Shown here one piece after another: positions 3,625-57,993 of a DNA stretch of 64,000 nucleotides. A program made the position numbers and the translations under genes. Under the pieces are notes generated by a model. It saw nothing but the letters and a program-made list of their open reading frames with translations. It did not search any database and was not told the DNA's origin. Every line of letters starts with the position of its first letter. The stretch's first letter is position 1. Source of the DNA: Dehalococcoidia bacterium (lineage in GTDB: Bacteria; Chloroflexota; Dehalococcoidia; Lucifugimonadales; UBA3495); the NCBI GenBank assembly GCA_965220605.1, contig CBDCQM010000005.1, forward strand, positions 729,565 to 793,564. The letters are read 5' to 3'.

Positions 3625-4173
3625 CTACCTGTTTCCGAAATCCTCGAGGTCGAGAGAATCAATGAAGTCGGTGAAGGCGGACATGCCCTCCAGTTCCTCC
3701 TCCTTGACCTCACCCCGTGGCTCGGCGGGCGCCGGTTCCACTTCTTCAGCCTGCCCTGCAGGGCGACCTTCCTTGTCCAGCTGAATGCCTGCCTTGTCCA
3801 GCACCGACTCGTTGGCGAATATGGGCACTTTTGCCCGCACCGCCAACGCGACGGCGTCGCTGGGCCGGCAGTCTATGTCCTCGCTTTGTCCGTTTACGTC
3901 AATGGTGATGGTGGCGAAGAAGGTATCGTTCTGCAGGTCATTCACCAGTATGTGGCGGATGGACCCGCCAAGCTTGTCGATGACTTCCCGGAGAAGGTCG
4001 TGGGTCAGAGGGCGGGGAACACTCAGGTCCTGGAGCTTCACCGCGATCGCGTCCGCCTCTGCGGGGCCAATCCAGATGGGAAGGTAGCGGTCGGAGTCAT
4101 TCTCCCTGAGAATGACCACCCTCTGGTAATTCATCGGACTCACGCGGATGCTGTCAACAGTCATCTGTTTCAT
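3625..4173 (-). CDS. Bifunctional nuclease family protein (DUF151/BFN)
   Basis: MKQMTVDSIRV...RVVILRE...YLPIWIGPAEADAIA...PRPLTHDLL is a DUF151 signature. GGAGG lies 9 nt before the ATG at 4173. The track ORF extends to 4245. Confidence 0.75.
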   Translation of the reverse strand: MKQMTVDSIRVSPMNYQRVVILRENDSDRYLPIWIGPAEADAIAVKLQDLSVPRPLTHDLLREVIDKLGGSIRHILVNDLQNDTFFATITIDVNGQSEDIDCRPSDAVALAVRAKVPIFANESVLDKAGIQLDKEGRPAGQAEEVEPAPAEPRGEVKEEELEGMSAFTDFIDSLDLEDFGNR

Positions 4174-4263
4174 TACCGTCGCCTCCGAATAAGTCCAAGT
4201 CCAAGATGGGAGAAAATTGTATTCCGGTGCCAAATTCCATGTCAACCCGAACCGACGCCGCGG

Positions 4264-4426
4264 CAGAGCTATCGCATATGAATTGCAACCCCGTCACTCC
4301 GGCGAAAGCCGGAGTCCAGAATGTGCGGGATGCCGGATTTTTGGATGCTAACTGCCTGGTTCGGCCACTGGATTCCGGCTTTCGCCGGAATGACGGACAT
4401 TACCCCGCTCCTATGCGATTGCCCTG
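4264..4426. mobile_element. MITE, B-ended family (CAGRGCWATCGCAT ends, twin hairpin core)
   Basis: cagagctatcgcatatg...gtcactccggcgaaagccggagtccag...ctggattccggctttcgccggaatgac...tatgcgattgccctg. Flanked by a short direct repeat, (g)ccgcgg. Confidence 0.7.
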
Positions 4427-4624: not shown

Positions 4625-5071
4625 CTAGTGCACAGGCTCCGGCTCGCTGAAGTACTGCGAGGTCAGAGTGGCCGTGGCCGGACCTGAAAGCACGTCGATT
4701 CCGCGGCGCACTGCAGCAGTGACGTTGGTGAGTTCCTGCTCCAGAGTCCGCAGGCTGCGGAGCGCATAGGCGTCAGCCTCGGACCGGCTGCTGTTGGCCT
4801 GGTTCTCGGCCTGCTCCACCATTCTCCGGGAGCGGTCTTCGGCGTCGCGAAGGATGTTCATGGCCCGCTGTTCCGCCTGGAGCAGCAAGTCGTGCTTGTC
4901 CAGCCGCTCCCGGTAGTCTTCCTCGGCCTGGGCCTTGGTGCGGCGGGCGTCGGTCTGGGCCAGGCTGATGATGTGGTCCTTCTGCGCCAGCACTTCTTCG
5001 GCCGCCCGTATTTCCTTGGGCACGGACAGTCGAAGCTGGTCGACCAGTTCCATGGCCTTGGTCCGGTCCAC
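4625..5071 (-). CDS. Coiled-coil protein of unknown function; the true start may lie upstream at a non-canonical codon
   Basis: 148-aa charged heptad-rich ORF from GTG at 5071. The frame stays open upstream to 5169 and encodes (I)DIINVIDKLETLIDTSKAARAGGHILV after GGGAGAGGGGG. Confidence 0.5.
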   Translation of the reverse strand: MDRTKAMELVDQLRLSVPKEIRAAEEVLAQKDHIISLAQTDARRTKAQAEEDYRERLDKHDLLLQAEQRAMNILRDAEDRSRRMVEQAENQANSSRSEADAYALRSLRTLEQELTNVTAAVRRGIDVLSGPATATLTSQYFSEPEPVH

Positions 5072-5713: not shown

Positions 5714-6277
5714 CTAGTTCCGGTCGTCAGGTTCATTCCGGTAGAAGGACACCGCGTTGTCGCCATACTGGCGGAATACGACCCGCCGCAGGGTTCCGTA
5801 TGCCGCCCTGAGCTCCGTTTGCCTCGAATGCCCCGCGACCACCATTCCGTCGGCGGTCAGCAGGCGCTGCCGGCCGCCGATTGCCTCCATAACCTGGTGG
5901 AAGGCGCCCATGCGATACGGGGGGTCCAGCATGACCAGACCGTAGCCCCCGGGTAGCGCCGGGAGCGCCCTTGCAGCGTCGGCCTGCCGTACCTCGGCAA
6001 TGTCCCCGAAGCCGGTACTTACCAGATTGTCGCGCACTACCCCGGCCTGTCTCCGGTCTTTCTCAACGAAGTCGGCCCAGGCTGCGCCACGGCTCAGAGC
6101 TTCGATTCCGAGGCTGCCGGTCCCCGCGAAGAGGTCCAGCACGCGCCGGTCGAAGTACTGCTCTTCTTCCAGAATGTTAAAGATCGCCGCCCTTACGCGT
6201 TCGGTGGTGGGGCGAACGCCCGCTGTCGCCGCGCCCTTCAGGCGCCTGCCGCGGGCCTCCCCGCCGCCTATCCGCAT
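5714..6277 (-). CDS. rsmD: 16S rRNA (guanine966-N2)-methyltransferase RsmD-like
   Basis: RPTTERVRAAIFNIL, LDLFAGTGSLGIEALSRGA and the DPPY motif are present. The rsmD-coaD gene order is classical. Confidence 0.85.
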   Translation of the reverse strand: MRIGGGEARGRRLKGAATAGVRPTTERVRAAIFNILEEEQYFDRRVLDLFAGTGSLGIEALSRGAAWADFVEKDRRQAGVVRDNLVSTGFGDIAEVRQADAARALPALPGGYGLVMLDPPYRMGAFHQVMEAIGGRQRLLTADGMVVAGHSRQTELRAAYGTLRRVVFRQYGDNAVSFYRNEPDDRN

Positions 6278-6452
6278 TGCTGGGGCACCAGGAAATTATA
6301 CAAGCTGACCTTTCCTCATCATATATAAACAGATACAAATTTTATCAAGTTTAAGAAATTTCCTAGAAGTAGGCGAGAAAATTGCCAGCCAGGCCAGGAG
6401 CGGACGGGCATCAAACGACAACGAAATTGCTCCGTCCTCACGGCGATTCAAG

Positions 6453-6481
6453 TTGACGCTCACAGGGTGCTGTGCTAACAT
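6453..6481 (+). promoter_or_regulatory. Sigma70-like promoter candidate TTGACG-17 nt-TAACAT upstream of ribF
   Basis: ttgacg at 6453-6458 and taacat at 6476-6481, exactly 17 nt apart. It sits at the edge of an AT-rich divergent intergenic region and would give a leader of about 150 nt. Confidence 0.35.
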
Positions 6482-6633
6482 CCGGCGCACGGTGCGGGAC
6501 GATTCCGAGTAAGGCCATGGACGCCCCGGACGTACTCCGGTTCAATGCAACTGCCGCAAATTCCCGGCCTCTGGCGCCGTCTCACCTGTCGGAAGCTGGG
6601 CAAGCCGGGACGATTTGGGGGATCTCAAAATCA

Positions 6634-7557
6634 ATGACCTTACGCCAGAGCTTGGCCGGCTTTGCCCCTGACAGGGACACGGTAATCACCGTGGGCGTTT
6701 TCGACGGTGTGCACCTCGGCCACCGTCATCTGCTTGAATACCTGATAGACTGGGCCGGTTCCAACTGTTCCCCCACCGTCCTCACCTTTTCCAACCGCCC
6801 GGTGACCGTTTTCCGGCCCGGCACCTTCCCCAGCTACCTTACCACACCCGACCATAAGGTTGCCCTCCTCAGGGAAGCCGGAGTCGAGGGTGTCGTTCCC
6901 CTCGAATTTACCCAGGAGCTTTCCCAGGTTTCCGCCCGCGAGTTCGCCGAGTATCTTTCCGGTCCGGTGCGCATGAAGGGCCTGGTTCTGGGGCCGGACT
7001 CTGCCCTCGGCAAGGGGCGGGAAGGGGACCTGGACTACATGAAGCAGGAAGGGGAGCGCCTGGGTTTCTGGGTCCGGTCGGTCCCTCCCCTCGAAGTCAA
7101 CGGCCAGCCGGTGAAGAGCCGGGTCATTCGCGAGGCTCTCGTAGCCGGGGACGTTGCCGGCGGCAGTGCGCTGCTGGGCCGCAACCACACCCTGAGCGGC
7201 AAGGTCGTGGTCGGTGACCAGCGCGGTCGCACCCTGGGCTTTCCCACAGCCAATATCGACGTCTACCCCGGCCTCCTCTGGCCGGGAGACGGAATCTACG
7301 CGACCTGGGCCCATTTCGGAGGCGAGCGACACGTCTCGGCTACTTCCATTGGCGTAAGGCCAACCTTCGGTCTCACCCAGAGACTCGTGGAAGTCTACGT
7401 GATGGACTTCAGCGGCGACCTCTACGGCCAGCAACTTACTGTCGAATTCGTCCAGAAAGTGCGCAACCAGGAGACCTTCGCCGACATTGACACCCTGATC
7501 GAGCGGATTGGCCAGGACGTTTCGGAGTCCCGGACGGTGTTGGCCAGGACCGGTTAG
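6634..7557 (+). CDS. ribF: Bifunctional riboflavin kinase / FAD synthetase
   Basis: ITVGVFDGVHLGHRHLL, ...GFPTANI... and PTFG motifs. Start moved to ATG 6634; the track ORF begins at 6472. Confidence 0.9.
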   Translation: MTLRQSLAGFAPDRDTVITVGVFDGVHLGHRHLLEYLIDWAGSNCSPTVLTFSNRPVTVFRPGTFPSYLTTPDHKVALLREAGVEGVVPLEFTQELSQVSAREFAEYLSGPVRMKGLVLGPDSALGKGREGDLDYMKQEGERLGFWVRSVPPLEVNGQPVKSRVIREALVAGDVAGGSALLGRNHTLSGKVVVGDQRGRTLGFPTANIDVYPGLLWPGDGIYATWAHFGGERHVSATSIGVRPTFGLTQRLVEVYVMDFSGDLYGQQLTVEFVQKVRNQETFADIDTLIERIGQDVSESRTVLARTG

Positions 7558-15841: not shown

Positions 15842-17476
15842 ATGAACGTTAACGATGCAGTGGCCCGTATCCTGAAGACAGAGGGAGTGGAATGGGTTTC
15901 CTGCTTTCCTTCCAACAACCTGATCGAATCCGTGGCGGCAGAGGGGATCCGGACCGTTCTGTTCCGGCAGGAACGCGGCGCCCTGATGGCCGCCGACGGC
16001 TACAGCAGGATGAACGACCGCCGCAAGTTCGGCGTGGCTATCACCCAGGGCGGCCCCGGTTCGGAGAACTCTCACGGCGGCATCGCCCAGGCCTTCTCCG
16101 ACAACATCCCGATCCTGTACCTGGCGGGCGGGCCAGCGTTGGGCCAGTACGCCGTGCGGCCCAACTTCTCGCCGGTGCGGTCCTACCAGTCGGTGTCGAA
16201 GCACGCCGAGGTGATCACAGCGCCGGGGCAGGTGGCGGCGACAATGCGGCGCGCCTTCCACCACCTGCGCAACGGCCGGCCCGGGCCGGTGATCGTGGAG
16301 ATTCCCGCCGACGTGGGCGGGCAGGAAGTGCCGGACGCGGCTCTGAATTACCAGCCGCCCAAGCGTCTGCCCCAGTCGCCATCGCGTGGCGACGTGGCGG
16401 AAGCGGCGCGGCTGTTGCTGAACGCCCGCAAGCCGGTAATCTGGTCGGGGATGGGCGTACTCTTTTCCCAGGCCACCGGGGAACTGCGGGAACTGGCCGA
16501 ACTCACCCAGATTCCCGTCTATACCACCATGCCCGGCAAGTCGTCCTTCGATGAACGGCACCCGCTGTCGCTGGGCGCGGGCAGCGGCGCGACCTCCCTG
16601 CCGGCCCGCAGGTGGATCCAGGAGTCGGACGTGCTCTTGGCAGTGGGTTCCAGCATGACCCGTACCAGCTACGGGCAGCCAATACCCGACGGCAAGGTCA
16701 TCATCCACAACGTCGAGAGCATCGAGGACATCAACAAGGACTTCTACGCGGATGTCGGACTTCCCGGCGACGCCAGGCTCACCATGCAGGCCCTGATAGA
16801 CGAGGTGAAAGGTCAGGTCGGAGAGGCGGGCCGGCCCGCCAACGGAGTCGCCGAGGAGATCGCTGAAATCCGCAAGGGCTGGCTGGCCGAATGGACTCCG
16901 CTTCTAGAGACCGACGAAGTCCCAATCGGCACGTACCGCGTAATCAACGAGCTGGAAAAGAACCTGGACCGGGAGAACAGCGTGGTGACCCACGATGCCG
17001 GTGCTCCCCGGGACTCCATCATCCCCTTCTACACTGCCACCACGCCCCACAGCTACATCGGCTGGGGCAAGTCCACGCACCTGGGCTACGGCATTCCGCT
17101 GATGATCGGGGCCAAGATGGCCGACCCCAACCGTTTCTGCCTGAACTTCATGGGAGACGGCGCCTTCGGCATGTCGGGCCTGGACATCGAGACCTCGGTG
17201 CGGGCGGGCGCGCCCATCACCACCATCGTGCTGAACAACGGCGGCATGGCGACCTACCCGGGCGGCTATCCCGTGGCCAACGAGCTTTTCGGACTGACCC
17301 GCATGGGCGGCGATTACGCCAAGATCGCCGAGGGCATGGGCGCTGTGGGGATCACCGTCACCCAGCCGTCGGAAGTCGGCCCGGCGCTGGTGCGAGCCCA
17401 GCAACTCAACCGCGACGGCCGCACCGTGCTGCTGGACATTCACACCAACCTGGAGGGCCGCAAGTCCACATACTAA
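15842..17476 (+). CDS. Thiamine-diphosphate-dependent enzyme (acetolactate synthase / oxalyl-CoA decarboxylase-like fold)
   Basis: An N-terminal Pyr domain (…FRQERGALMAADGYSR…) and a C-terminal PP domain with GDGAFGMSG…NNGG. 544 aa from ATG 15842. Confidence 0.8.
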   Translation: MNVNDAVARILKTEGVEWVSCFPSNNLIESVAAEGIRTVLFRQERGALMAADGYSRMNDRRKFGVAITQGGPGSENSHGGIAQAFSDNIPILYLAGGPALGQYAVRPNFSPVRSYQSVSKHAEVITAPGQVAATMRRAFHHLRNGRPGPVIVEIPADVGGQEVPDAALNYQPPKRLPQSPSRGDVAEAARLLLNARKPVIWSGMGVLFSQATGELRELAELTQIPVYTTMPGKSSFDERHPLSLGAGSGATSLPARRWIQESDVLLAVGSSMTRTSYGQPIPDGKVIIHNVESIEDINKDFYADVGLPGDARLTMQALIDEVKGQVGEAGRPANGVAEEIAEIRKGWLAEWTPLLETDEVPIGTYRVINELEKNLDRENSVVTHDAGAPRDSIIPFYTATTPHSYIGWGKSTHLGYGIPLMIGAKMADPNRFCLNFMGDGAFGMSGLDIETSVRAGAPITTIVLNNGGMATYPGGYPVANELFGLTRMGGDYAKIAEGMGAVGITVTQPSEVGPALVRAQQLNRDGRTVLLDIHTNLEGRKSTY

Positions 17477-18007: not shown

Positions 18008-18187
18008 GGCCGCGTCGTCAAATTGAGTTGCCGGACACGCGACGGTCCTTTTCCCGTCATTCCGGCGAAAGCCGGAATCCAGACGCGCTCTATACCGCAG
18101 AATGATTTGCCTGCGGAAAACCCTGGATTCCTCCTGAGCTCGCCGATGGGTTTCGCCGGAATGACGGGTTAATTTGACGATACACAC
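18007..18187. mobile_element. MITE, A-ended family (degenerate copy), abutting the mce stop codon
   Basis: gtcgtcaaattgag...gtcattccggcgaaagccggaatccag...(damaged second hairpin)...gaatgacgggttaatttgacgat. TA is present at both flanks (18005-06 and 18188-89). Confidence 0.7.
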
Positions 18188-18325: not shown

Positions 18326-18679
18326 TGGTGGAGACGGGGGAGAGTCGAACTCCCCGTCCAGAAGAACCTATAAGCCGGATGTGCTACAAGCTTGTCCGCC
18401 GGTTTGATCTTGGACTCTTCAGGCACCGCCGACGCAACCTGGAGAGACCCAGCCGGTGAATCTTTGGCCGCCCTTACCGGCGTCGGATTGGCCGCATCCC
18501 GGACTTATGGCGCCTGACTCCCCTCCTCCGGGAATAGCTGGGAGCAGACGTAGCCGCGTTTAGGCGGCTAGAGCGAATTCACGTTCGCCAGTTACTTTGC
18601 GCCACCTGTTTAACGAGGTTTGATGGCACCTCGGCTTGCAATCCGTTACAGAACGCCCCTGTCGAACCCGCGCGTCCCC
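18326..18679 (-). ncRNA. ssrA: tmRNA (SsrA), predicted tag GEREFALAA
   Basis: 5' end GGGGACGCGCGGGTTCGACAGGGG. 3' tRNA-like end GGACGGGGAGTTCGACTCTCCCCCGTCTCCACCA. Internal reading frame GGC GAA CGT GAA TTC GCT CTA GCC GCC TAA at 18589-18560. Confidence 0.9.
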
Positions 18680-18743: not shown

Positions 18744-18819
18744 TGGCGACCCGGATGGGATTCGAACCCACGATCTCTGGCGTGACAGGCCAGTATGTTA
18801 ACCGCTACACCACCGGGCC
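18744..18819 (-). tRNA. tRNA-Asp (GTC), CCA encoded
   Basis: GGCCCGGTGGTGTAGCGGTTAACATACTGGCCTGTCACGCCAGAGATCGTGGGTTCGAATCCCATCCGGGTCGCCA. A 7-bp acceptor stem, anticodon loop CTGTCAC and a T-loop GGTTCGAATCC. Confidence 0.9.
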
Positions 18820-22216: not shown

Positions 22217-22314
22217 CCTAAAATCAGTAGCAGCTTTCTTTTCTGTTTTCCCGTGCATCAGATTCACCCCCACCCCAACCCTCCCCCTCAAGGGGGAGGG
22301 AGCTTTTGAGATAG
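22217..22314. repeat. REP/MITE-like element family B long form
   Basis: cctaaaatcagtagcagctttc...ttcacccccaccccaaccctccccctcaagggggagggagcttttgagatag. Confidence 0.6.
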
Positions 22315-22320
22315 TTACTA

Positions 22321-22484
22321 GGGGGTGTCGTCAAATTAACTCGTCATTCCGGCGAAAGCCGGAATCCAGGGGTTTCCGCAGGCAAATCATTTTGCGGCGT
22401 AGAGCGAGCCTGGATTCCGGCTTTCGCCGGAATGACGGGAAAAGGACCGTCGCGTGTCCGGTAACCCAATTTGACGACACTCCC
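22321..22484. mobile_element. MITE, A-ended family, intact 164-bp copy flanked by TA
   Basis: TA|gggggtgtcgtcaaatta...gtcattccggcgaaagccggaatccag...ctggattccggctttcgccggaatgac...aatttgacgacactccc|TA. Confidence 0.8.
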
Positions 22485-22536
22485 TAAGGGGACTATACCC
22501 TCCACCTCAAGGGAGAGGGGACTAAGGGGACTGTTT

Positions 22537-27455: not shown

Positions 27456-28040
27456 CTAATCGAAGCTGAAAGGCGGGTATTCGTCTACAAGCAGAGCGCC
27501 GTATGCGCTGACGCGGTACTGCCATAGATTCAACCGCATGATTATGTCGTACAGCGATTCGGAATAACGGCCTGTAATCAGCACCAGCAGCAGGGCCACC
27601 AGCACCAGCAGGCCGGTGATCATGCCCAGGAAATATACGATTATCCAGTGCGGGATAATGAGCAGCCAGCGAAACAGGGTGGTCAACCGCGAAGACCTTT
27701 CCGGGTATTCAATCAGCAGGTCCGCCGGATAGTCGTCCCGCGAACCGAAGGAGAAGGGTGGGTATCTGTCGGTGTTGCCAACACCGTACGAGTAATAGTT
27801 GACACGCCAGCTCCACCTGAGCAGGCCGGCGTGGTATCCCCACAGAAACTCAGGATTGCGGCCGATGACAAGAATGATGAGCCACGAGAGCGGGACAGTG
27901 AAAATCGTTGGGAACTGAAGAAGGCTCAGCAATACGATATGCGGAATCAGCAGCAGCCATTTAATGAGCCACAAGACGCGGTTGACCCGCTCTTCGTACT
28001 CCCCAACCAGTTGCACAGGGTAGGAGCCGTATCCAGCCAT
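27456..28040 (-). CDS. DUF4389 family membrane protein (tandem repeat)
   Basis: YPVQLVGEYEERVNRVLWLIKWLLLIPHIVLL and a second ADLLIEYPERSSRLTTLFRWLLIIPHWIIV repeat. Both end in YPPFSF. Alternative start at 28073. Confidence 0.7.
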   Translation of the reverse strand: MAGYGSYPVQLVGEYEERVNRVLWLIKWLLLIPHIVLLSLLQFPTIFTVPLSWLIILVIGRNPEFLWGYHAGLLRWSWRVNYYSYGVGNTDRYPPFSFGSRDDYPADLLIEYPERSSRLTTLFRWLLIIPHWIIVYFLGMITGLLVLVALLLVLITGRYSESLYDIIMRLNLWQYRVSAYGALLVDEYPPFSFD

Positions 28041-28150
28041 TAGGGGAACATCCTGCCACGAAGATTGCCACAATAATGGGAGCTTCCCGCAAGAATTTCG
28101 GGCTGGGTTTCAGTATACCTTACCGGCTTTCCTGCTATCCCGTCAGATGA

Positions 28151-28357
28151 CAGGGCAATCGCGTTATAACCGAATCGCCGCCTACTTGGCGCCAGAAATC
28201 TCTCCGGCACGCCGGAAGAGACCGTCATTCCGGCGAAAGCCGGAATCCAGAGCGTCCCGGAGCAGGCCAACTTTCCGGTAATCAAGGGTTATGGATTCCG
28301 GCTTTCGCCGGAATGACATTTGATGGGCAGGCAAAAGCTATAACGCAATCGTCCTAG
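28151..28357. mobile_element. MITE, B-ended family (longer variant) flanked by a 9-bp direct repeat gtcagatga
   Basis: cagggcaatcgcgttataacc...gtcattccggcgaaagccggaatccag...tggattccggctttcgccggaatgac...tataacgcaatcgtcctag. Direct repeats at 28142-28150 and 28357-28365. The right-hand copy contains the stop codon of the CoA-transferase gene. Confidence 0.7.
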
Positions 28358-29707
28358 TCAGATGATGCCCAGCCGGTAGAGTTGGACCACCTCTTCGGGG
28401 GTGTAGCCCAGCTCTCCGGCGTAGATCTCGCTGTTGTGCTGGCCCATCGTCGGCGCGGGACGGGGATGCGATCCTTCGACAGGCTCAGGATGAGCGGCAG
28501 GAGCAAGCTCAGGGTTAGCGGCAAGAGCGGGATCGGGATTGGCGGCAGGGGCCGACAGCGCATAGGGTGGGCCGGGAAGGGCGACCGGGCCAGTATCGGG
28601 CCGCTCGACCTCCACGAACAGGGACGCCAGGCTGGGGTCGTGGCGCACCTCGTCGAAACCCCTCACCGGAGCCAGGGGAATACGGTGCTCCAGCGCCATC
28701 CCCAGCAGTTCCGCTTTGGTGTGCTGTAGCAGCCACTCCTCGACGTACCCGTCCACCTCGTCGGCGTACTCGTTGTTCATCACGGTGCGGTTGCGAAAGC
28801 GCGGCTCCTGGGACCACCCGGGCGTGCCCATCAGTTCCAGCAGTCTGCGCCACTGGCGGCCTTCCGGGGAGCCAACAAAGATGTATCCATCCTTGCAACG
28901 CAGTATGCAGTTGGGGTAGGGAAAGTCCAGCGCATGGTGCCCGGTGCGGCGCGTCACTCGCCACTGGTAGACCGCCATCAGGGCCTCGGGGCCGTTGTAC
29001 AGCCCAGCCATGGACTCGATCTCGGCGATGTCGATGTGCTGACCGGGGCTGGCAGCGGAGATTTCTCCCTCATTCCAACTCTCTCCCGCCGGGAGAGAGG
29101 GCGGATTGTCGCGGGCCAGCAGGGCCATAACGATGGCCGACGCGGCGGCGGCTCCGGCGAAGTAGCCAGCTTCGGGCGTGCCGAAGGTCAGCGGCTCGCG
29201 GTCGGGGCTGCCGAGGCCCTCGCAGATTCCCCCGCCTGCCGCCAGGTTGATGTCGTAGGCTTTCCAATCGCGGTATGGGCCGGTCAGGCCGAACGGCGTG
29301 ATTGAGGCCATCACGAGACCGTTGTTGTGTTCTCGCAGAGAATCGTACTCGAGCCCGACCCGGTCCATCTCGGTTGGGTGCAGGTTATGCACCAGCACGT
29401 CGGCGCGGGAGACCATGCCTGCCAGTATCTCGCGCCCGGTGGGCGTATCGAGGTTGAGGGTGACGCCCCTCTTGTCGGCGTTCAGGTACAGGAACAGGCC
29501 GCCCCGCTCCCGGTGATGCGACCGTTCATGGTGAGCCTGTCGAACCACCGGCCAGGGGCCGTAGTCCCGGGCCCAGTCGCCAACCCCGGAACGCTCGATC
29601 TTCACCACATCGGCGCCCATGTCGGCCAGGAGCTTGCCACAGTAGGGGGCGGAGATGAACTCCCCGAACTCAAGGACTCGCAGGCCGTTAAGAAGGCCGT
29701 AGGTCAT
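28358..29707 (-). CDS. CaiB/BaiF family III CoA-transferase (paralog 4) with in-frame low-complexity insertions
   Basis: MTYGLLNGLRVLEFGEFISAPYCGKLLADMGADVVKIE... from ATG 29707. The track ORF extends to 29983 but that part is non-homologous and Arg/His-rich. Confidence 0.8.
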   Translation of the reverse strand: MTYGLLNGLRVLEFGEFISAPYCGKLLADMGADVVKIERSGVGDWARDYGPWPVVRQAHHERSHHRERGGLFLYLNADKRGVTLNLDTPTGREILAGMVSRADVLVHNLHPTEMDRVGLEYDSLREHNNGLVMASITPFGLTGPYRDWKAYDINLAAGGGICEGLGSPDREPLTFGTPEAGYFAGAAAASAIVMALLARDNPPSLPAGESWNEGEISAASPGQHIDIAEIESMAGLYNGPEALMAVYQWRVTRRTGHHALDFPYPNCILRCKDGYIFVGSPEGRQWRRLLELMGTPGWSQEPRFRNRTVMNNEYADEVDGYVEEWLLQHTKAELLGMALEHRIPLAPVRGFDEVRHDPSLASLFVEVERPDTGPVALPGPPYALSAPAANPDPALAANPELAPAAHPEPVEGSHPRPAPTMGQHNSEIYAGELGYTPEEVVQLYRLGII

Positions 29708-29712
29708 GCCGT

Positions 29713-30459
29713 TCAGCCCGCGGCCGCGTATCGGGCCAGGGCGTGCAGGTGGCCGGCCAGTTCCTCCGGCGCGGAGAGGAAGGGTGAATGGCCGGTCGGC
29801 ATGGTGATGACCTCGGCGCAGGGCATGGCGGTGTACATATCGCGCGCGAACTCCGGCGACACCGCGTTGTCCTGTAAGCACTCGACAAAGATACGAGGCA
29901 CACGTCCGAAATTTGCGTCGGTGATCCGCATGGGCGAGACCAACGGGCCCACGGGCTGAGGAACAACCATCGACTGCGCCCACGCCACGTCTTCGGACGA
30001 ACAGTCGTTGTAGAAGCGGTGCTGCGTCTGCTCCATCTTGTAGAGCACATGGGTGCCGTCTGCGGCCAGATCCCAGCTGGGGCGTTCCTCCAGGGCTCGT
30101 TGCAGGTCCGACTCCTCTGAGACCGTCCCCATGAATGTCGCACCGTCCGGCAGGAGGACCGCCGTGAGGTACACCAGCACAGCCACCTTGTCGGGACGCA
30201 ACTCCGCGGCCCGGCTGATGGATATGCCGCCCAGGCTGTGCCCCACCAGCACTACAGGACCTTCCAGCGAGTCCAGGACGCCACAGACGTGCTCGGCGTA
30301 GGTCTCCAACGTGACGTCGGCCAAGGGGGTGCCGTCATGGCCGTTGCCGGGGAGGTCGACGGCAATCACCCTGTGGCCATGCTGCTCCAGCAGAGGGGTC
30401 ACGCGCTCCCAGCACCAGGAGCCGTGGGCCGAGCCGTGAACGAGGACGTAGTTGGCCAT
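29713..30459 (-). CDS. Alpha/beta hydrolase (esterase-like)
   Basis: MANYVLVHGSAHGSWCW... and the nucleophile elbow GHSLGG. 248 aa. Confidence 0.8.
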   Translation of the reverse strand: MANYVLVHGSAHGSWCWERVTPLLEQHGHRVIAVDLPGNGHDGTPLADVTLETYAEHVCGVLDSLEGPVVLVGHSLGGISISRAAELRPDKVAVLVYLTAVLLPDGATFMGTVSEESDLQRALEERPSWDLAADGTHVLYKMEQTQHRFYNDCSSEDVAWAQSMVVPQPVGPLVSPMRITDANFGRVPRIFVECLQDNAVSPEFARDMYTAMPCAEVITMPTGHSPFLSAPEELAGHLHALARYAAAG

Positions 30460-37044: not shown

Positions 37045-37113
37045 CGATATTATTCAGAGGACGCCCCAACCTTCTCCGTGGAGGGAGAGGGAATTTTACG
37101 AAGGAGAACAGCG

Positions 37114-37662
37114 ATGACCAGAGTACCATTTGCCGCGCGTGAAGCCATGGATGCAGCCGGGCAGGCGATCTGGGACGAAATAGAGACCTCCCGAGGAGGG
37201 GTAGCGCGAAATTACGCTGCTCTGCTGAACAACCCGCAGGCCGCTGGGGCGCTGGCGGGCCTGGGCGGTTATGCCCGCTACGAGACGCCGCTCCCGCAGC
37301 GCATCAAGGCCCTGGCCATCCTGACCGCCGCCAGGGAAGCCTGCGGCAATTACGTCTGGACGGTCAACCAGCGTCCCGCAAGAGAGGCCGGGATATCCGA
37401 CGACATCATCGCCGCCATCCTCGAGTACCGGGCTCCCGCCGGGTTCGAAGCCGATGACGCCACGGTTGTGCAGTTCGTGCTGGAACTTCTGAGGCAACAC
37501 CGGATCTCCGACACGACTTTCGAAGCCATGCGCGCCCTGGTCGGCAACGCCGGCGTAGTGGACGTCCTGGTGGTCAGCGGCTACTACCATACGCTGGCCC
37601 ACTGCCTTCAGGCCCTCGACGTGGAGCTGCCCGAAGGAACCACCACCGCGCTGACCTACTAG
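37114..37662 (+). CDS. Carboxymuconolactone decarboxylase (AhpD-like) family protein
   Basis: 182 aa from ATG 37114 (AAGGAGA upstream). CMD-like helices (…LAILTAAREACGNYVW…). Confidence 0.7.
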   Translation: MTRVPFAAREAMDAAGQAIWDEIETSRGGVARNYAALLNNPQAAGALAGLGGYARYETPLPQRIKALAILTAAREACGNYVWTVNQRPAREAGISDDIIAAILEYRAPAGFEADDATVVQFVLELLRQHRISDTTFEAMRALVGNAGVVDVLVVSGYYHTLAHCLQALDVELPEGTTTALTY

Positions 37663-37710
37663 CTGCCCGTATTCGACGCGAGAAAAAGGAAATAACGACA
37701 GCGAGGGGGC

Positions 37711-37875
37711 CAGGGCTATCGCATATGGACAGTTTAGTCGCTGTCATTCCGGCAGAAGCCGGAATCCAGTGTCCTTAATCGTCAGTATCGTTGCGGAGAT
37801 CAAATGCCTTGCAATTACTGGACTCCGGCTTCCGCCGGAGTGACGGGGTTGCAGTTTTATATGCGATAGCCCCTG
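37711..37875. mobile_element. MITE, B-ended family, flanked by a perfect 10-bp direct repeat gcgagggggc
   Basis: gcgagggggc|cagggctatcgcatatgg...gtcattccggcagaagccggaatccag...ctggactccggcttccgccggagtgac...atatgcgatagcccctg|gcgagggggc. Confidence 0.8.
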
Positions 37876-37900
37876 GCGAGGGGGCGTTTACCTGTGGTGG

Positions 37901-40063
37901 ATGGAGAATAAGATGTCAACCTGTCGCAGAGCGGCTTTTATCGTTGTCGCCGGCATATTGCCTTTGCTGCTTTCCTGCTGGGCAGGCAACCCGGAGGAAC
38001 TGACCAGGCTGGATTCTCTCCGGCAGGACGTGGTGCGACTGCACACCGACTTGTCGGAATTGTCCAAGTCCAGCTTGGGCGAGGACGAAAGCCGTTTCAC
38101 CTTGCAACTGCTCCACGCCGCCGATATGGACGGAGCCGCCGGCGCGTTGCAGAACGTGGAGAACTTTTCGGCCATTCTGTCCGGCCTGCGCCAACAGTAT
38201 CCCCAAAACACCCTTGTCTTGAGTTCGGGCGACAACTTCGTTCCGGGCCCGAGATACTACGCAGCGGGCGATCCCTCGATGGACGCTATCCTGGGGGTTG
38301 CCGGATACGGACGGGCGGACGTTGCTCTGCTCAATGCAATGGGCTTCCAGGTTTCGGCGTTGGGAAACCACGAACTGGACCGGGGCACCTGGGAGTTCGC
38401 TTCCATCGTCAAGGCAGAGGTTGGAGACGGCGCAACATATCCCGGTTCCGGGTTCCCTTACCTGTCCAGCAATCTGGATTTCACCACCGACGAAAACCTG
38501 GCCGAACTGGTGGTTCCCGACGGGCAGGACGCCATCCTGGTAGGCGGCAGCCTGGCCCGCAGCGCCGTGGTCACCGTCGGCGGCCAGCGCATCGGGATAG
38601 TTGGCGCAACCACCCCGTCCCTGCCCTCCATCACCGGCATCGGCGGCATCACCGTCGCGCCTGCGGACTACGACCTCGAGGCTCTCGCCGCCATTATCCA
38701 GGAATCGGTGGACGCCTTGACCGCGCAGGGCCTGAACAAGATTATCCTGCTGGGCCATATGCAGCGCATAGAAATTGAGCAGTCATTGGCGGAGAAACTT
38801 CGAGACGTGGACATCATCGTCGCCGGGGGGTCCAATACGCTGCTGGCCGACGACACCGACCGGCTTCGCCCCGGCGACGTGGCCGCAGGAACCTACCCGC
38901 TGAGCCACCAATCCGCGGACGGGGAGCCGGTGTTGCTGGTGAACACCGATGCCGACTACCGCTATCTGGGCCGCTTGGTGGTGGATTTCGACGAAGAGGG
39001 GCGAGTCATCCCCGACTCCGTAAACCCCTATGTCAGCGGGGCCTACGCCACCGACTTGCAGGGCGGCCAGCTCTTCGCCGGGCAGCCCATCCAGGAGGTA
39101 AGCCGCATCACAGAATCTCTGCGTCCGGTGTTGCAGGAACGGGACGGCGACATCGCGGGCCGCACCGCCGTCTATCTGGCCGGACGGAGGGTTGACGTGC
39201 GAACCCAGGAAACCAACCTGGGCAACCTGATTGCCGACGCCTTTCTGTGGACGGCCCGTCAGCTCGACCCGGAAACGCAGGTGTCCCTGAAGAACAGCGG
39301 GGGCATCCGCGACAGCATCGGGCTGGTGGCGCAGCCACCGGGAACCATATCCCTGGATGATGTGCGGTTTCTGCCCCCGCAGGCCAATCCCGTTGTCGGC
39401 AAGCGCGAGGGAGACGTGTCCCGGCTGGACATCGAAGGCGCCCTTCGCTTCAACAACGGCATGTCCATAATCCCACTGACTGCGACGGAACTGGTCGGCA
39501 TTATTGAGCACACCGTCAGCGCCGAAGGGGTAGGAGAAGTTCCCTCCGGCCTCTTTCCCCAGGTGGGCGGAATGAGACTCAGCTTTGATCCAAGCGCCTC
39601 TTCAGGCCAGCGCATTCGCTCTCTCGCCATAGTGGACGATGAGGGGCAAGTGCTTGACCGGGTGGTGGTGAACGGGAGGCTGTCCGGCGACCCGGAGCGT
39701 CAAATCAAAATGGCTACGATGAATTTCCTGGCTAACGGGGGCTCCGGGTATCCGTTCCCGTTCCCTCACTCCGAGCGGGTTGACCTCTCCGGCGAGGCCG
39801 TGCAGCCCAACCCTCCCAACCCGGACTTCCCGGACTCCAACGGCAACGGAAGGATAGACGACCCCCAGGCGGTTGACCCCGGCCTTTCGGACTTCGCCGC
39901 CTCCGGCACGGAGCAGGACGCACTGGCCGAGTACCTGGCCCACTTCTACGCCGACGAGCCGTTCAACAAACCCGAAACCTCTCCCCTGAGCGACAGACGC
40001 ATCCAGAACCTGGGCCTGCCTGGAATGACGGATACCGTGTTCCGTGGGGAAACCGAAAAATAG
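37901..40063 (+). CDS. Lipoprotein bifunctional metallophosphatase / 5'-nucleotidase (UshA-like)
   Basis: Signal peptide with the lipobox LLLSC. Metallophosphatase motifs (LLHAADMDG, GDNFVPG, GNHELD) and a C-terminal 5'-nucleotidase domain. 720 aa. Confidence 0.8.
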   Translation: MENKMSTCRRAAFIVVAGILPLLLSCWAGNPEELTRLDSLRQDVVRLHTDLSELSKSSLGEDESRFTLQLLHAADMDGAAGALQNVENFSAILSGLRQQYPQNTLVLSSGDNFVPGPRYYAAGDPSMDAILGVAGYGRADVALLNAMGFQVSALGNHELDRGTWEFASIVKAEVGDGATYPGSGFPYLSSNLDFTTDENLAELVVPDGQDAILVGGSLARSAVVTVGGQRIGIVGATTPSLPSITGIGGITVAPADYDLEALAAIIQESVDALTAQGLNKIILLGHMQRIEIEQSLAEKLRDVDIIVAGGSNTLLADDTDRLRPGDVAAGTYPLSHQSADGEPVLLVNTDADYRYLGRLVVDFDEEGRVIPDSVNPYVSGAYATDLQGGQLFAGQPIQEVSRITESLRPVLQERDGDIAGRTAVYLAGRRVDVRTQETNLGNLIADAFLWTARQLDPETQVSLKNSGGIRDSIGLVAQPPGTISLDDVRFLPPQANPVVGKREGDVSRLDIEGALRFNNGMSIIPLTATELVGIIEHTVSAEGVGEVPSGLFPQVGGMRLSFDPSASSGQRIRSLAIVDDEGQVLDRVVVNGRLSGDPERQIKMATMNFLANGGSGYPFPFPHSERVDLSGEAVQPNPPNPDFPDSNGNGRIDDPQAVDPGLSDFAASGTEQDALAEYLAHFYADEPFNKPETSPLSDRRIQNLGLPGMTDTVFRGETEK

Positions 40064-53420: not shown

Positions 53421-53873
53421 CGTCCTCGTCGTCTCCTCAATCGCCGACGGAAAGCTGCAAGAGCCGTACCGCTCAAGTCGTAAGCCGTTATGACGAATGC
53501 GTCGCCTGTTCCCGGGCCTGGCACGTAGATAACCCGAAGATACCTGTCGGCAGCGGTTTGTCCTATGACTATTCGTGAGTCATTTCGTCCGGGTCTATCT
53601 TCGGCAGCTTCTTCTAGGGAGTGTCGTCAAATTGAGCAACCAGACACACCACAGCCTTATTTCCGTCATTCCGACGAAAGCCGGAATCCAGAAAATCCGG
53701 CTGCCGCATGACGGTTTGGCTACGGAAACCTCTGGATTCCGGCTTTCGCCGGAATGACGGGTTAATTTGACGACACCCCCTAAGGCTTCAATCGCTTCTG
53801 ATTCTTCGACCCCGTGACGGAAAATATGCGGCAGTCCCGTCTCGGGGTCGATGTAAAAGCGTATACCCGACAT
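53417..53873 (-). pseudogene. Toxin-like gene (BrnT/DUF497- or DUF4258-like) split by a MITE
   Basis: The 5' part 53873-53781 encodes MSGIRFYIDPETGLPHIFRHGVEESEAIEAL. The 3' part 53614-53417 encodes EEAAEDRPGRNDSRIVIGQTAADRYLRVIYVPGPGTGDAFVITAYDLSGTALAAFRRRLRRRRGR*. Deleting 53617-53780 plus one TA joins them in frame (96 aa). Confidence 0.6.
53617..53780. mobile_element. MITE, A-ended family, intact 164-bp copy flanked by TA, inside the toxin-like gene
   Basis: TA|gggagtgtcgtcaaattgag...gtcattccgacgaaagccggaatccag...ctggattccggctttcgccggaatgac...aatttgacgacaccccc|TA. Confidence 0.85.
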
Positions 53874-56407: not shown

Positions 56408-56987
56408 CAGGGCTATCGTATATGGCCCATTTAAGCGCCGTCATTCCGGCGAAAGCCGGAATCCAGAAAACGCTAGGGAGTGTCGTCAAACTTGCACGTC
56501 ATTCCGGCAAAAGCCGGAATCCAGAAAACGCTAGGGAGTGTCGTCAAACTTGCACGTCATTCCGGCGAAAGCCGGAATCCAGAAAACGCTAGGGAGTGTC
56601 GTCAAACTTGCACGTCATTCCGGCGAAAGCCGGAATCCAGAAAACGCTAGGGAGTGTCGTCAAACTTGCACGTCATTCCGGCGAAAGCCGGAATCCAGAA
56701 AACGCTAGGGAGTGTCGTCAAACTTACACGTCATTCCGGCGAAAGCCGGAATCCAGAAAACGCTAGGGAGTGTCGTCAAACTTACACGTCATTCCGGCAA
56801 AAGCCGGAATCCAGAAAACGCTAGGGAGTGTCGTCAAACTTGCACGTCATTCCGGCGAAAGCCGGAATCCAGGGATTTCCGTAGCCAAACCGTCATGCGG
56901 CAGCCGGATTTTCTGGATTCCGGCTTTCGCCGGAATGACGGAAATAAGGCTGTGGCGCGTCTGGTTACTCAATTTGACGACACTCCC
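56408..56987. repeat. Composite MITE: B-type left end, 8 tandem 58-bp hairpin units, A-type right end
   Basis: Hairpin starts at 56440, 56498, 56556, 56614, 56672, 56730, 56788 and 56846 (period exactly 58 bp). The unit is gtcattccggcgaaagccggaatccagaaaacgctagggagtgtcgtcaaacttgcac, with only 2 variable positions. Ends with ...aatttgacgacactccc|TA. Confidence 0.85.
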
Positions 56988-57021
56988 TAGGCACAGAGAA
57001 CGCAGCCGGAGGGCAACATCT

Positions 57022-57048
57022 CTGGATTCCGGCTTTCGCCGGAATGAC
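57022..57048. repeat. Solo copy of the hairpin core
   Basis: ctggattccggctttcgccggaatgac. Confidence 0.6.
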
Positions 57049-57111
57049 CATATTGTTAACCAATCAATTCGCCTATCAGTAAAAGACCCTGTCCCTCAGC
57101 CCGGCATAATT

Positions 57112-57171: not shown

Positions 57172-57993
57172 TTAGCTGGACTGGCGGCCTGCTATGAATG
57201 CGCCGCCTGCGGCTACCACGCCGACGATGGCGATGATCAGGGCCACGATGGCGAGGGCTCCGCCCCCACCGTCCGCGCCCGCAGCGCCGGCGGGACCGGC
57301 AGGACCGGTAGCGCCGTCAGCGCCAGCGGGACCGGCAGGACCAGCGGGGCCGGCAGGACCGGCTGCGCCGTCGGAACCATCGGAGCCGTCGGAACCGTCA
57401 GCGCCAGCGGGACCGGCAGGACCGCGAGCGCCGTCAGCGCCGGGTGCGCCGTCATGACCGTCGTGGCCATCCTCGCCAGCGGGGCCGGCAGGACCGGGCT
57501 CGCCCTGAGGACCGGGCTCTCCCTGAAGTCCGCGGGGACCGCGCATGGCCTGCTGGTCCTGCTGCGGCGTCCGGGTCGGCGGCACCATGCCCGTGGAAGC
57601 GTCCAGGTTGACCATGGCGTCCATGCCGCCAACGGTCATGACTTCGGCGGGGTCGGACATGGCGTCGTACTTCATGGTCTCGCCGTCCATCATCATGGAC
57701 AGCGCGAAGGTGACCATCTTTTCGCCGGAGTCGGGGACGATGAGGGTGAAGGAGCCGTCGGCCATGACGTCGGCCATGCCGATCTCCATCATCATCATCT
57801 CGCCCTCTTCACCCTCCTCTTCGACCATGGCCACGACCATGGTGCCGTCGGGCGGGGTCTCGCCATCCAGCATGGCCATGCCTTGGATCAGGCTGGGGAT
57901 GCCTGGTGGCTGCTGCGCGAGGGCCACCGACAGCGGCAGGGCCGCGAGCAGGGCGATCACGCTGAGCAGGGCCAGGACTCTGGTTTTGGTCAT
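57172..57993 (-). CDS. Met-rich, collagen-like (G-X-Y)n protein with a signal peptide and a C-terminal TM anchor
   Basis: Signal [26 protein letters not shown]. Head domain with about 21 Met in about 120 aa ([22 protein letters not shown]). About 30 uninterrupted G-X-Y triplets ([25 protein letters not shown]...). Tail [28 protein letters not shown]. Confidence 0.8.

Follow-up and report, generated by a model that had tools for sequence, protein, structure and literature searches.

Insertion sequences (ISs) of the ISAs1 family carry terminal inverted repeats of 14–22 bp that begin CAGGG and produce a 10-bp direct repeat (PMC11946415); one of them, ISArsp11, has CAGGGCTGATGCAAAGTCG ends and a 10-bp repeat (PMC6305408). 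A different kind of repeat, the Neisseria Transformation Sequence (NTS, CGTCATTCCCGCGMAVGCGGGAATCYRG), was described in Nat Commun in 2025 together with SsnA, a 94-aa GIY-YIG protein that binds the NTS and cuts just upstream of it, acting on single-stranded DNA only (PMC11893778). Binding by Ssn needs the stem and the C that follows it, and cleavage needs the three preceding bases; hairpins of the SRM class flank ssn genes across phyla, and the NTS-ssnA-NTS arrangement has been likened to a mobile element (PMC11893778). Here, we analyze a 64,000-nucleotide stretch of a Dehalococcoidia bacterium genome (contig CBDCQM010000005.1; hereafter the window), in which a family of MITEs (miniature inverted-repeat transposable elements), which we call type 2, is represented by three copies (C1–C3) and by the left half of a chimeric fourth copy (C4). 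The reading that we favor, with a probability of roughly 0.8, is that these are non-autonomous MITEs of the ISAs1 family carrying hairpins of the NTS/SRM class.

A first-pass annotation of the window had reported, beside the type-1 (IS5-type) MITEs described below, another MITE family distinguished by different ends and a different duplication length. That family is real; C1 and C3 lie exactly where they were placed, the copy beginning at 28151 ends at 28356 and not at 28357, and a fourth copy, at 56408–57091, had been missed. The features of C1–C3 are as follows.

37711–37875, no strand: C1, type-2 MITE of 165 bp with terminal inverted repeats at ~37711–37729 and 37857–37875
37701–37710: left copy of the C1 target duplication gcgagggggc, 10 bp, perfect
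37876–37885: right copy of the C1 target duplication gcgagggggc, 10 bp, perfect
37743–37769, plus strand: left hairpin of C1, SRM/NTS-type, GTCATTCCGGCAGAAGCCGGAATCCAG; DNA hairpin of −10.4 kcal/mol, z = −5.8
37819–37845, minus strand: right hairpin of C1, minus-strand sequence GTCACTCCGGCGGAAGCCGGAGTCCAG; stem variant with a compensated T-A to C-G change
28151–28356, no strand: C2, type-2 MITE, 206 bp; left inverted repeat perfect, right degenerate
28142–28150: left copy of the C2 target duplication gtcagatga, 9 bp
28357–28365: right copy of the C2 target duplication gtcagatga, 9 bp
28224–28250, plus strand: left SRM-type hairpin of C2
28292–28318, minus strand: right SRM-type hairpin of C2
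4264–4426, no strand: C3, type-2 MITE, 163 bp; hairpins at 4293–4319 (plus strand) and 4369–4395 (minus strand)

The inverted-repeat ends of C1, C2, and C3 are CAGGGCWATCGCRT, also written in the short form CAGGGCWATCGC; C1 and C3 have terminal repeats CAGGGCWATCGCRTWTG of about 17 bp on either side, and C2 and C4 have them on the left. C1 begins CAGGGCTATCGCATATGG, with a perfect left end (CAGGGCTATCGCAT), and terminates ...ATATGCGATAGCCCCTG, its right end containing one additional C (ATGCGATAGCCCCTG). C2 begins CAGGGCAATCGCGTTATAAC and has an eroded right end (AACGCAATCGTCCTA, ...TATAACGCAATCGTCCTA), and C3 has the ends CAGAGCTATCGCAT / ATGCGATTGCCCTG, with CAGAGC at the left and a perfect right end. 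No copy, C4 included, has any coding capacity. The combination of CAGGG ends with duplications of 8–10 bp, here typically 10, is the signature of the ISAs1 family, and the type-2 elements display it. Known ISAs1-family ISs (ISAs1, ISArsp11, and the Frankia Francci3_2330/2941 elements) likewise have CAGGG(C) repeats within 14–22 bp and a duplication of 10 bp (8–10); C1–C3 differ from them in measuring only 163–206 bp, in carrying no transposase gene, and in having an interior that is unrelated past the first ~17–19 bp. A perfect 10-bp flanking repeat such as that of C1 has a chance probability of ~1e-6 in fixed register. The duplications named at first pass hold for C1 (10 bp) and C2 (9 bp); at C3, for which a weaker repeat had been given, only ccgcgg (+g), 6–7 bp, is repeated, and this is not counted as an established duplication because the short repeat sits in a CCG/CGG-rich flank.

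Family-wide, the duplication is 10 bp. One scan of a species-representative genome collection, with a pattern consisting of the left end plus the hairpin, returned at least 111 loci (L001–L111), and the counts that follow are among the matches listed. The loci are mostly from Dehalococcoidia/Chloroflexota metagenome-assembled genomes (MAGs), with a few from Azospirillum, a Methylococcaceae MAG, and Candidatus Magnetominusculus; C1 is a member of a 163–166-bp subfamily found in many Dehalococcoidia loci. Pairing of left and right ends gave 110 complete elements with lengths of 124–446 bp. Exact flanking repeats peak sharply at 10 bp (29 of the 110 perfect, versus 2 each at 8 and 9 bp), and 10-bp flanks with at most two mismatches occur at 59 copies, versus none when the right flank was shifted by 25 bp as a control; registers of 8, 9, 11, and 12 bp give no such peak. 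Because the search pattern left the flanks unconstrained, the census is unbiased with respect to the duplication. The consistent 10-bp length bears out the first-pass annotation, which had named coincidental direct repeats as one outcome that would undo its claim. A reading in which the flank repeats are coincidental, or in which both end types belong to a single longer composite element, is extremely improbable, being refuted by this census and by the empty site described below; the shifted control, without a single 10-bp match, speaks directly against coincidence.

Alignment of 60 half-elements shows that the ends (columns 1–15) and the hairpin are conserved, while the linkers vary. The distance from terminus to hairpin in the type-2 elements of L001–L111 falls into clusters at 21–22, 30–32, 40–41, 51–53, and 62 nt, and in many copies the complete hairpin is preceded upstream by a tandem series of truncated half-hairpins (CCGTCATTCCSGC plus ~8 nt), one to three in number (e.g., L077:2235, L025:5253, and L001:337). 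In Magnetominusculus and relatives (L011:7060–7264, L087:909–1112, and L088:818–1042), type-2 ends accompany a different, shorter hairpin stem, GTCATTCCGGCTTGTCCGGAATC; in Azospirillum (L053:1178–1350), the same type-2 ends are combined with hairpins that match the NTS exactly and with perfect duplications of 10 bp. The distribution of this MITE family accordingly covers several phyla.

The annotation had also proposed, as one of two possibilities, that two different transposases mobilize the two MITE types and had suggested a search for ISs with matching inverted repeats; related genomes contain such ISs. In a related Dehalococcoidia genome, L108 holds a 1,252-bp ISAs1 element (5966–7217) with ends CAGGGCAAACGCATTC (CAGGGCAAACGCATT), one base off the MITE consensus CAGGGCAATCGCATT across the first 15, and a 10-bp duplication (ggcatctcac/gggatctcac). 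Its 379-aa product matches NF033564, "ISAs1 family transposase," at 433.1 bits (cutoff 70), as well as PF13808 and PF01609. A second ISAs1-type IS, 39% identical and with ends CAGGGTCTTTTAATTGT, lies at L007 916–2137. The type-1 family, with GGGRGTGTCGTCAAA ends (GGGRGTGTCGTCAAATT) and a TA duplication, matches an 868-bp IS5-family element (L041 1945–2812) that has the ends GGGGGTGTCGTCAAAAG (type-1 GGGGGTGTCGTCAAA ends), a TA duplication, and two overlapping open reading frames (ORFs) matching NF033580, "IS5 family transposase." Two transposases are supported because each MITE type has an autonomous partner of a different DDE family in related genomes; neither an ISAs1 nor an IS5 transposase is encoded in the 64-kb window. 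Based on the ends, the duplications, and the partner element, we assign the type-2 elements to ISAs1-type MITEs with high confidence.

The shared ends and the duplication length suggest that an ISAs1 transposase from the source genome would mobilize the type-2 elements in trans. In the mechanism that we propose, a DDE transposase of the ISAs1 family, with its gene at another place in the genome, would recognize the ~17-bp terminal repeats CAGGGCWATCGCRTWTG, excise or copy the element, and insert it via a staggered cut, usually of 10 bp and sometimes of 9; repair of that cut would then produce the flanking duplication. Such movement is ordinary for a MITE, and the ISAs1 assignment is the new detail; no description of ISAs1-derived MITEs was found in the literature searched. 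At three loci (L108:5956–7403, L007:701–2147, and L075:4690–4800), ISAs1-type ends abut 10–11 bp apart, with the same 10-bp target sequence occurring three times, in the arrangement IS, duplication, MITE, duplication (IS then MITE in L108, MITE then IS in L007). This observation suggests that ISAs1-type elements have a preference for targets immediately next to an end that is already in place.

Direct evidence of insertion comes from C2 and the following gene.

28358–29707, minus strand: family III CoA-transferase gene, 449-aa product P0001; the longest ORF reaches 29983

The ORF at 28358–29983 (minus strand) matches PF02515, family III CoA-transferase, at 270.9 bits, and a homology search returned P0001, identical to the gene's 449-aa product and located on a contig of 1.13 Mb, along with orthologs of 86–89% identity. 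As had been noted at first pass, the 28151 copy sits at the 3′ end of this gene: the right duplicate contains the stop codon (28358–28360) together with the final two Ile codons, and C2 is placed between that stop codon and a DUF4389 gene (27456–28073, minus strand). The suggested search for empty sites in relatives succeeded for this copy. A metagenome contig (L114/L117) that is syntenic with the window, with the order CoA-transferase, DUF4389, CoA-transferase, is uninterrupted at the C2 site, reading ...CTACCGGCTGGGCATCATCTGACGGGATAGCAGGAAAGCC... (core ...GGCATCATCTGACGGGATAGCAGG...), and the window has TAGGACGATTGCG...CGCGATTGCCCTG+TCATCTGAC added after ...CATCATCTGAC. C2 therefore arose by insertion, which added 206 bp and duplicated 9 bp of target. 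A second ortholog, on the Dehalococcoidia chromosome L112, also lacks C2.

For C1, the corresponding intergenic region of L117 is filled by a different hairpin-bearing element without CAGGG ends, and hence offers no empty site; the reconstructed C1 empty site, used as an exact 24-mer, had no match in the metagenome collection. Comparison of L117:1522–1950 and 2512–2734 with window positions 37663–37900 and 37054–37101 shows different hairpin-bearing MITEs there, and one hairpin-bearing element of L117, with the inverted repeat TGTCTGAATCAGGATT..., occupies a site at which the window is empty. The same intergenic gaps have been struck repeatedly by different MITE families.

The hairpin that accompanies the ends is 27 nt long, CGTCAYTCCSGC-GAAA-GCSGGARTCCAG (also given as CGTCATTCCGGCGAAAGCCGGAATCCAG), and each type-2 copy in the window has two of them, inverted; C2 has an additional small hairpin at about 28189–28212. 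The pattern CATTCCGGC-N4-GCCGGAAT has 43 matches in the window on both strands (each hairpin being counted per strand), versus 0.52 expected, and all real hairpin matches fall within elements with inverted-repeat ends. The stem is 94.3% paired, and three of its eight pairs vary on both sides (U-A/C-G; G-C/C-G/U-A; U-A/A-U; 43 cells), a level of covariation reached in 0 of 500 shuffles, with slid controls low. The two hairpins of an element are often not identical (e.g., ACTCCGGC on the left vs. ATTCCCGC on the right), each being self-complementary, which points to a constraint on local hairpins and not on a long foldback. As single-stranded DNA, C1 has a stable foldback of −42.1 kcal/mol (z = −8.0); an origin of the elements by foldback, with each half copied from the other, was rejected, since within subfamilies the left side consistently differs from the right in its linker and hairpin variant. 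The unpaired flanks CGTCA and TCCAG are nearly invariant, with CGTCA and TCC at least 90% conserved across the 60 half-elements.

These features correspond to the published NTS/SRM motif, which the earlier reading did not recognize in the hairpin. The window contains 17 matches to the published degenerate SRM pattern, versus 0.8 in shuffles, and its hairpin variant differs from the NTS by one compensated pair (ATTCCGGC/GCCGGAAT); the related loci L001–L111 contain 37 exact matches to the Neisseria NTS consensus. Because the invariant flanks and the covarying stem fit the published rules of Ssn recognition, we consider it likely that the hairpin belongs to the SRM class.

The same hairpins could instead act as RNA, as REP-like stabilizers or insulators that make insertion between co-directional genes harmless and that are unrelated to Ssn, with the elements still being ISAs1 MITEs. 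Each of C1–C3 does lie between genes of the same strand: C1 between a CMD-like gene (37078–37662, plus strand) and a 5′-nucleotidase-like gene (37901–40063, plus strand), C3 between a BFN-domain gene (3625–4245, minus strand) and a weakly assigned gene (4625–5071, minus strand), and C2 as described above. The covarying stem closes a GAAA tetraloop with −9 to −10.4 kcal/mol, and one hairpin in each orientation would provide a GAAA-loop hairpin in either direction of transcription. However, the single-stranded flanks CGTCA/TCCAG are as conserved as the stem, which the Ssn rules predict and a pure stability element does not, and many copies are the exact Neisseria NTS. Furthermore, the hairpins lack a termination T-run and matched no Rfam family; at gathering thresholds, only transfer-messenger RNA (tmRNA) and tRNA were matched in the window. 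On balance, an RNA-level role in place of SRM function is unlikely.

The hairpins are not confined to type-2 elements. The type-1 copies in the window are the following.

22321–22484: type-1 MITE, 164 bp; GGGRGTGTCGTCAAATT ends, TA duplication, same two hairpins
53617–53780: type-1 MITE, 164 bp; TA duplication
18008–18187: degenerate type-1 MITE; adjoins the tmRNA gene

A minus-strand tmRNA gene (140.8 bits) and a tRNA gene, at 18326–18679 and 18747–18819, lie beside the 18008–18187 MITE. The copy at 22.3 kb has a GC-rich palindromic repeat, CCCTC(T/C)CCCTTGAGGGGGAGGG, on both sides (22281–22300 and 22500–22520); this repeat occurs once at the orthologous L117 site (17046–17072), and a related 33-bp tandem repeat lies at 944–1011. 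The comparison with L117 at the site of this type-1 copy is confounded by a repeat there, CCCTCCCCCTTGAGGGGGAGGG.

The IS5-family (IS427-like) MITEs share with type 2 the order ends, linker, hairpin, center, hairpin, linker, ends, as well as identical 27-nt hairpins, and differ from type 2 in their GGGRGTGTCGTCAAATT ends, TA duplication, and IS5 partner (L041). With the hairpins masked, the centers and linkers of the two types have no similarity. The two types have in common nothing beyond the 27-nt hairpins and the way these are placed, close to either end and with their GTC sides outward; the "same twin hairpin core" of the first-pass annotation is accurate for the two hairpins and their outward orientation and not for the sequence between and beside them. 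Exchange of the whole core module between families was accordingly dropped as an explanation, the centers being without homology; of the module shuffling that had been suggested, what exists is a chimera with the ends of two ISAs1 subgroups (C4, below). Outside type-2 elements, further end types stand beside the hairpins at related loci (GTAACTGTTCAGAC..., TTACTGATGCGT..., and GGTGTGTTGACAAATACC...), such that the hairpins occur in at least four MITE end-type families: the IS5-type, type 2, and at least two others. The presence of the same hairpin in several end-type families implies that this unit is conserved or acquired independently of its carrier's transposase.

Such a distribution also raises the alternative that the inverted hairpin pair is itself mobile (REPIN-like, via RAYT or an Ssn-type enzyme) and colonizes existing MITEs, with the transposase ends serving only as the vehicle. 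The same outward-facing hairpins in at least four end-type families with unrelated centers and linkers would fit, as would the likening of NTS-ssnA-NTS to a mobile element (PMC11893778) and a 26-bp SRM-like mini-hairpin found at the identical loop position of five different stems. Against this, no hairpin in the window lies outside elements with inverted-repeat ends, left and right hairpin variants are inherited with the element within MITE subfamilies, and the DDE ends fully account for the duplications; no RAYT or Ssn gene turned up in the window and related loci, although no search aimed at RAYT was made. We therefore regard independent mobility of the hairpin pair as quite improbable.

The mini-hairpin (AACGTCACCCCGTACTTGATACGGGG, ~26 bp, SRM-like in build) occurs at one fixed loop position, after GCGAAAG, of hairpins with five stem variants, sometimes in tandem (L029:370–559, L030:~368, L045:4654/7806, L076:984–1135, L077:2343/5619, L089:411, L092:3176–3325, L009:6013, and L018:3777), and has the look of a unit inserted site-specifically into the loops of hairpins. 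Another insert, TCGCAGATGCGCCTTTGGCGTG, is present at the same loop position (L018:79–329 and 1318–1543, L025:5253–5477, L040:5192–5398, L069:1141–1370, and L106:2338–2544), in up to four tandem repeats (L018:127–214).

The fourth copy in the window combines different ends and holds a nested element.

56408–57091, no strand: C4, chimeric host element; left end type 2, right end of a second ISAs1 subgroup
56476–56987: type-1 (IS5-type) MITE nested in C4 at a TA; left part amplified
56439–56872, plus strand: tandem array, 58-bp unit, 7.5 copies, 98% matches, score 840

C4, found by a pattern search for the end motif, begins CAGGGCTATCGTAT at 56408, and its right end, CAGGGTCTTTTACTGATAGG on the minus strand from 57091, is the end type of the second ISAs1 subgroup. 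The unit of the array consists of the SRM hairpin, AAAACGC, TA, and the nested type-1 MITE's left end, and the array probably arose by unequal exchange between the hairpin of the host and that of the nested element. The chimera implies that recombination between elements at or near shared hairpins occurs. That both end types fall within one 684-bp stretch is the observation that would favor a single composite element; however, what lies in this stretch is a host element into which a type-1 copy, flanked by a TA duplication of its own, is nested, and elsewhere each type occurs alone, with its own duplication and its own autonomous partner. The C2 empty site, moreover, removes exactly one type-2 element. 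One longer element, the other outcome that would have undone the original claim, is thereby excluded: the repeats, duplications, and partners are separate, and a type-1 copy is nested in a type-2-ended element. Beyond C4, an ORF at 57172–57993 (minus strand) encodes collagen-like triple-helix repeats (PF01391, 53 bits) and overlaps GC-rich short-period tandem repeats at 57268–57526.

A working Ssn partnership in this genome is a tentative proposal, to which we give somewhat less than an even chance; an Ssn-type protein, expected to be a GIY-YIG protein of the cd10448 type, would, in that case, act on the hairpins in this organism. An Ssn-like probe matched a real family at up to 90% identity, the top hits being alphaproteobacteria-like, and 80 likewise alphaproteobacteria-like metagenome loci around the Ssn-like gene contained 41 SRM matches, nearly all within 370 bp of the gene. 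The published association between gene and motif was thereby reproduced for another Ssn subfamily. This alphaproteobacteria-like subfamily was ruled out as the cognate enzyme of the window hairpins by its different SRM stem.

Several observations weigh against our interpretation. C3 has no 9–10-bp duplication, and C4 has none at all (ggtgagagcg vs. tccctcagcc). The ISAs1 partner elements come from related genomes and not from the source genome. Because the census pattern demanded a hairpin beside an end, the hairpin frequencies are biased, and the hairpin is nevertheless absent from 15 of the 110 copies; it is therefore not required for family membership. The covariation counts are raised by the shared ancestry of the copies, the cells not being independent events, and intrastrand templated repair in a DNA palindrome could restore complementarity without selection. 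Searches for an Ssn/GIY-YIG gene (regex and tblastn, small proteins) found none, either in the 64-kb window or across the ~0.9 Mb that the related loci comprise, which represent a small part of each 4-Mb genome, and the stem at the alphaproteobacterial Ssn subfamily I loci sampled is GCCCGGG, not ATTCCSGC.

Among other bacterial repeats, the dRS3/NIME and Correia elements of Neisseria resemble type-2 MITEs in their small size, intergenic location, and inverted symmetry. NIMEs consist of RS-unit arrays with dRS3 at the boundaries and are not known to have transposase-type ends or target duplications, and Correia elements have other ends and a TA duplication. The 20-bp core of dRS3, ATTCCC-N8-GGGAAT, is the same palindrome as the hairpin (PMC11893778). 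REP, BIME, and REPIN sequences are likewise pairs of inverted, hairpin-forming intergenic repeats, an analogy drawn in the Ssn paper (PMC11893778); in contrast to type-2 elements, which have DDE-type terminal repeats and a 9–10-bp target duplication, REPINs, whose movement depends on a flanked gene for a RAYT (Y1) transposase, have neither. Compared with published NTS/SRM repeats, the motif here occurs in Chloroflexota and takes the form of inverted pairs within several families of transposase-mobilized MITEs. Neither MITEs nor Chloroflexi are mentioned in the main text of PMC11893778, and a literature search with the hairpin sequence returned one Neisseria paper only, without an explanation; the link between MITEs and SRM hairpins is apparently undescribed.

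A broader and rather doubtful suggestion is that SRM/NTS hairpins multiply in genomes mainly by being carried in MITEs of several transposase families unrelated to each other (two subgroups of ISAs1, IS5, and further ones), and that they may actively colonize their carriers; the latter is raised because the 26-bp mini-hairpin recurs at one fixed loop position of five stems. If true, it would answer a question left by the Ssn paper, namely how its repeats accumulate (PMC11893778), and would reveal a layered relation between a host or selfish nuclease motif and its DDE-transposon vehicles that extends over Chloroflexota, Nitrospirota, and Alpha- and Gammaproteobacteria. For the ISAs1 family, the analysis documents a MITE lineage in the poorly studied Dehalococcoidia by means of an empty site, a census of 110 copies, and a partner IS that can be named. 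The position of C2 at the very stop codon of the CoA-transferase gene, with the duplication keeping the end of the reading frame, shows how such insertions can be tolerated. The hairpin pairs in MITEs of several transposase families suggest a testable route by which the repeats spread, and they suggest that MITE insertions would seed sites for a single-stranded DNA nuclease beside genes; in Neisseria, such sites modulate the recombination of incoming DNA.

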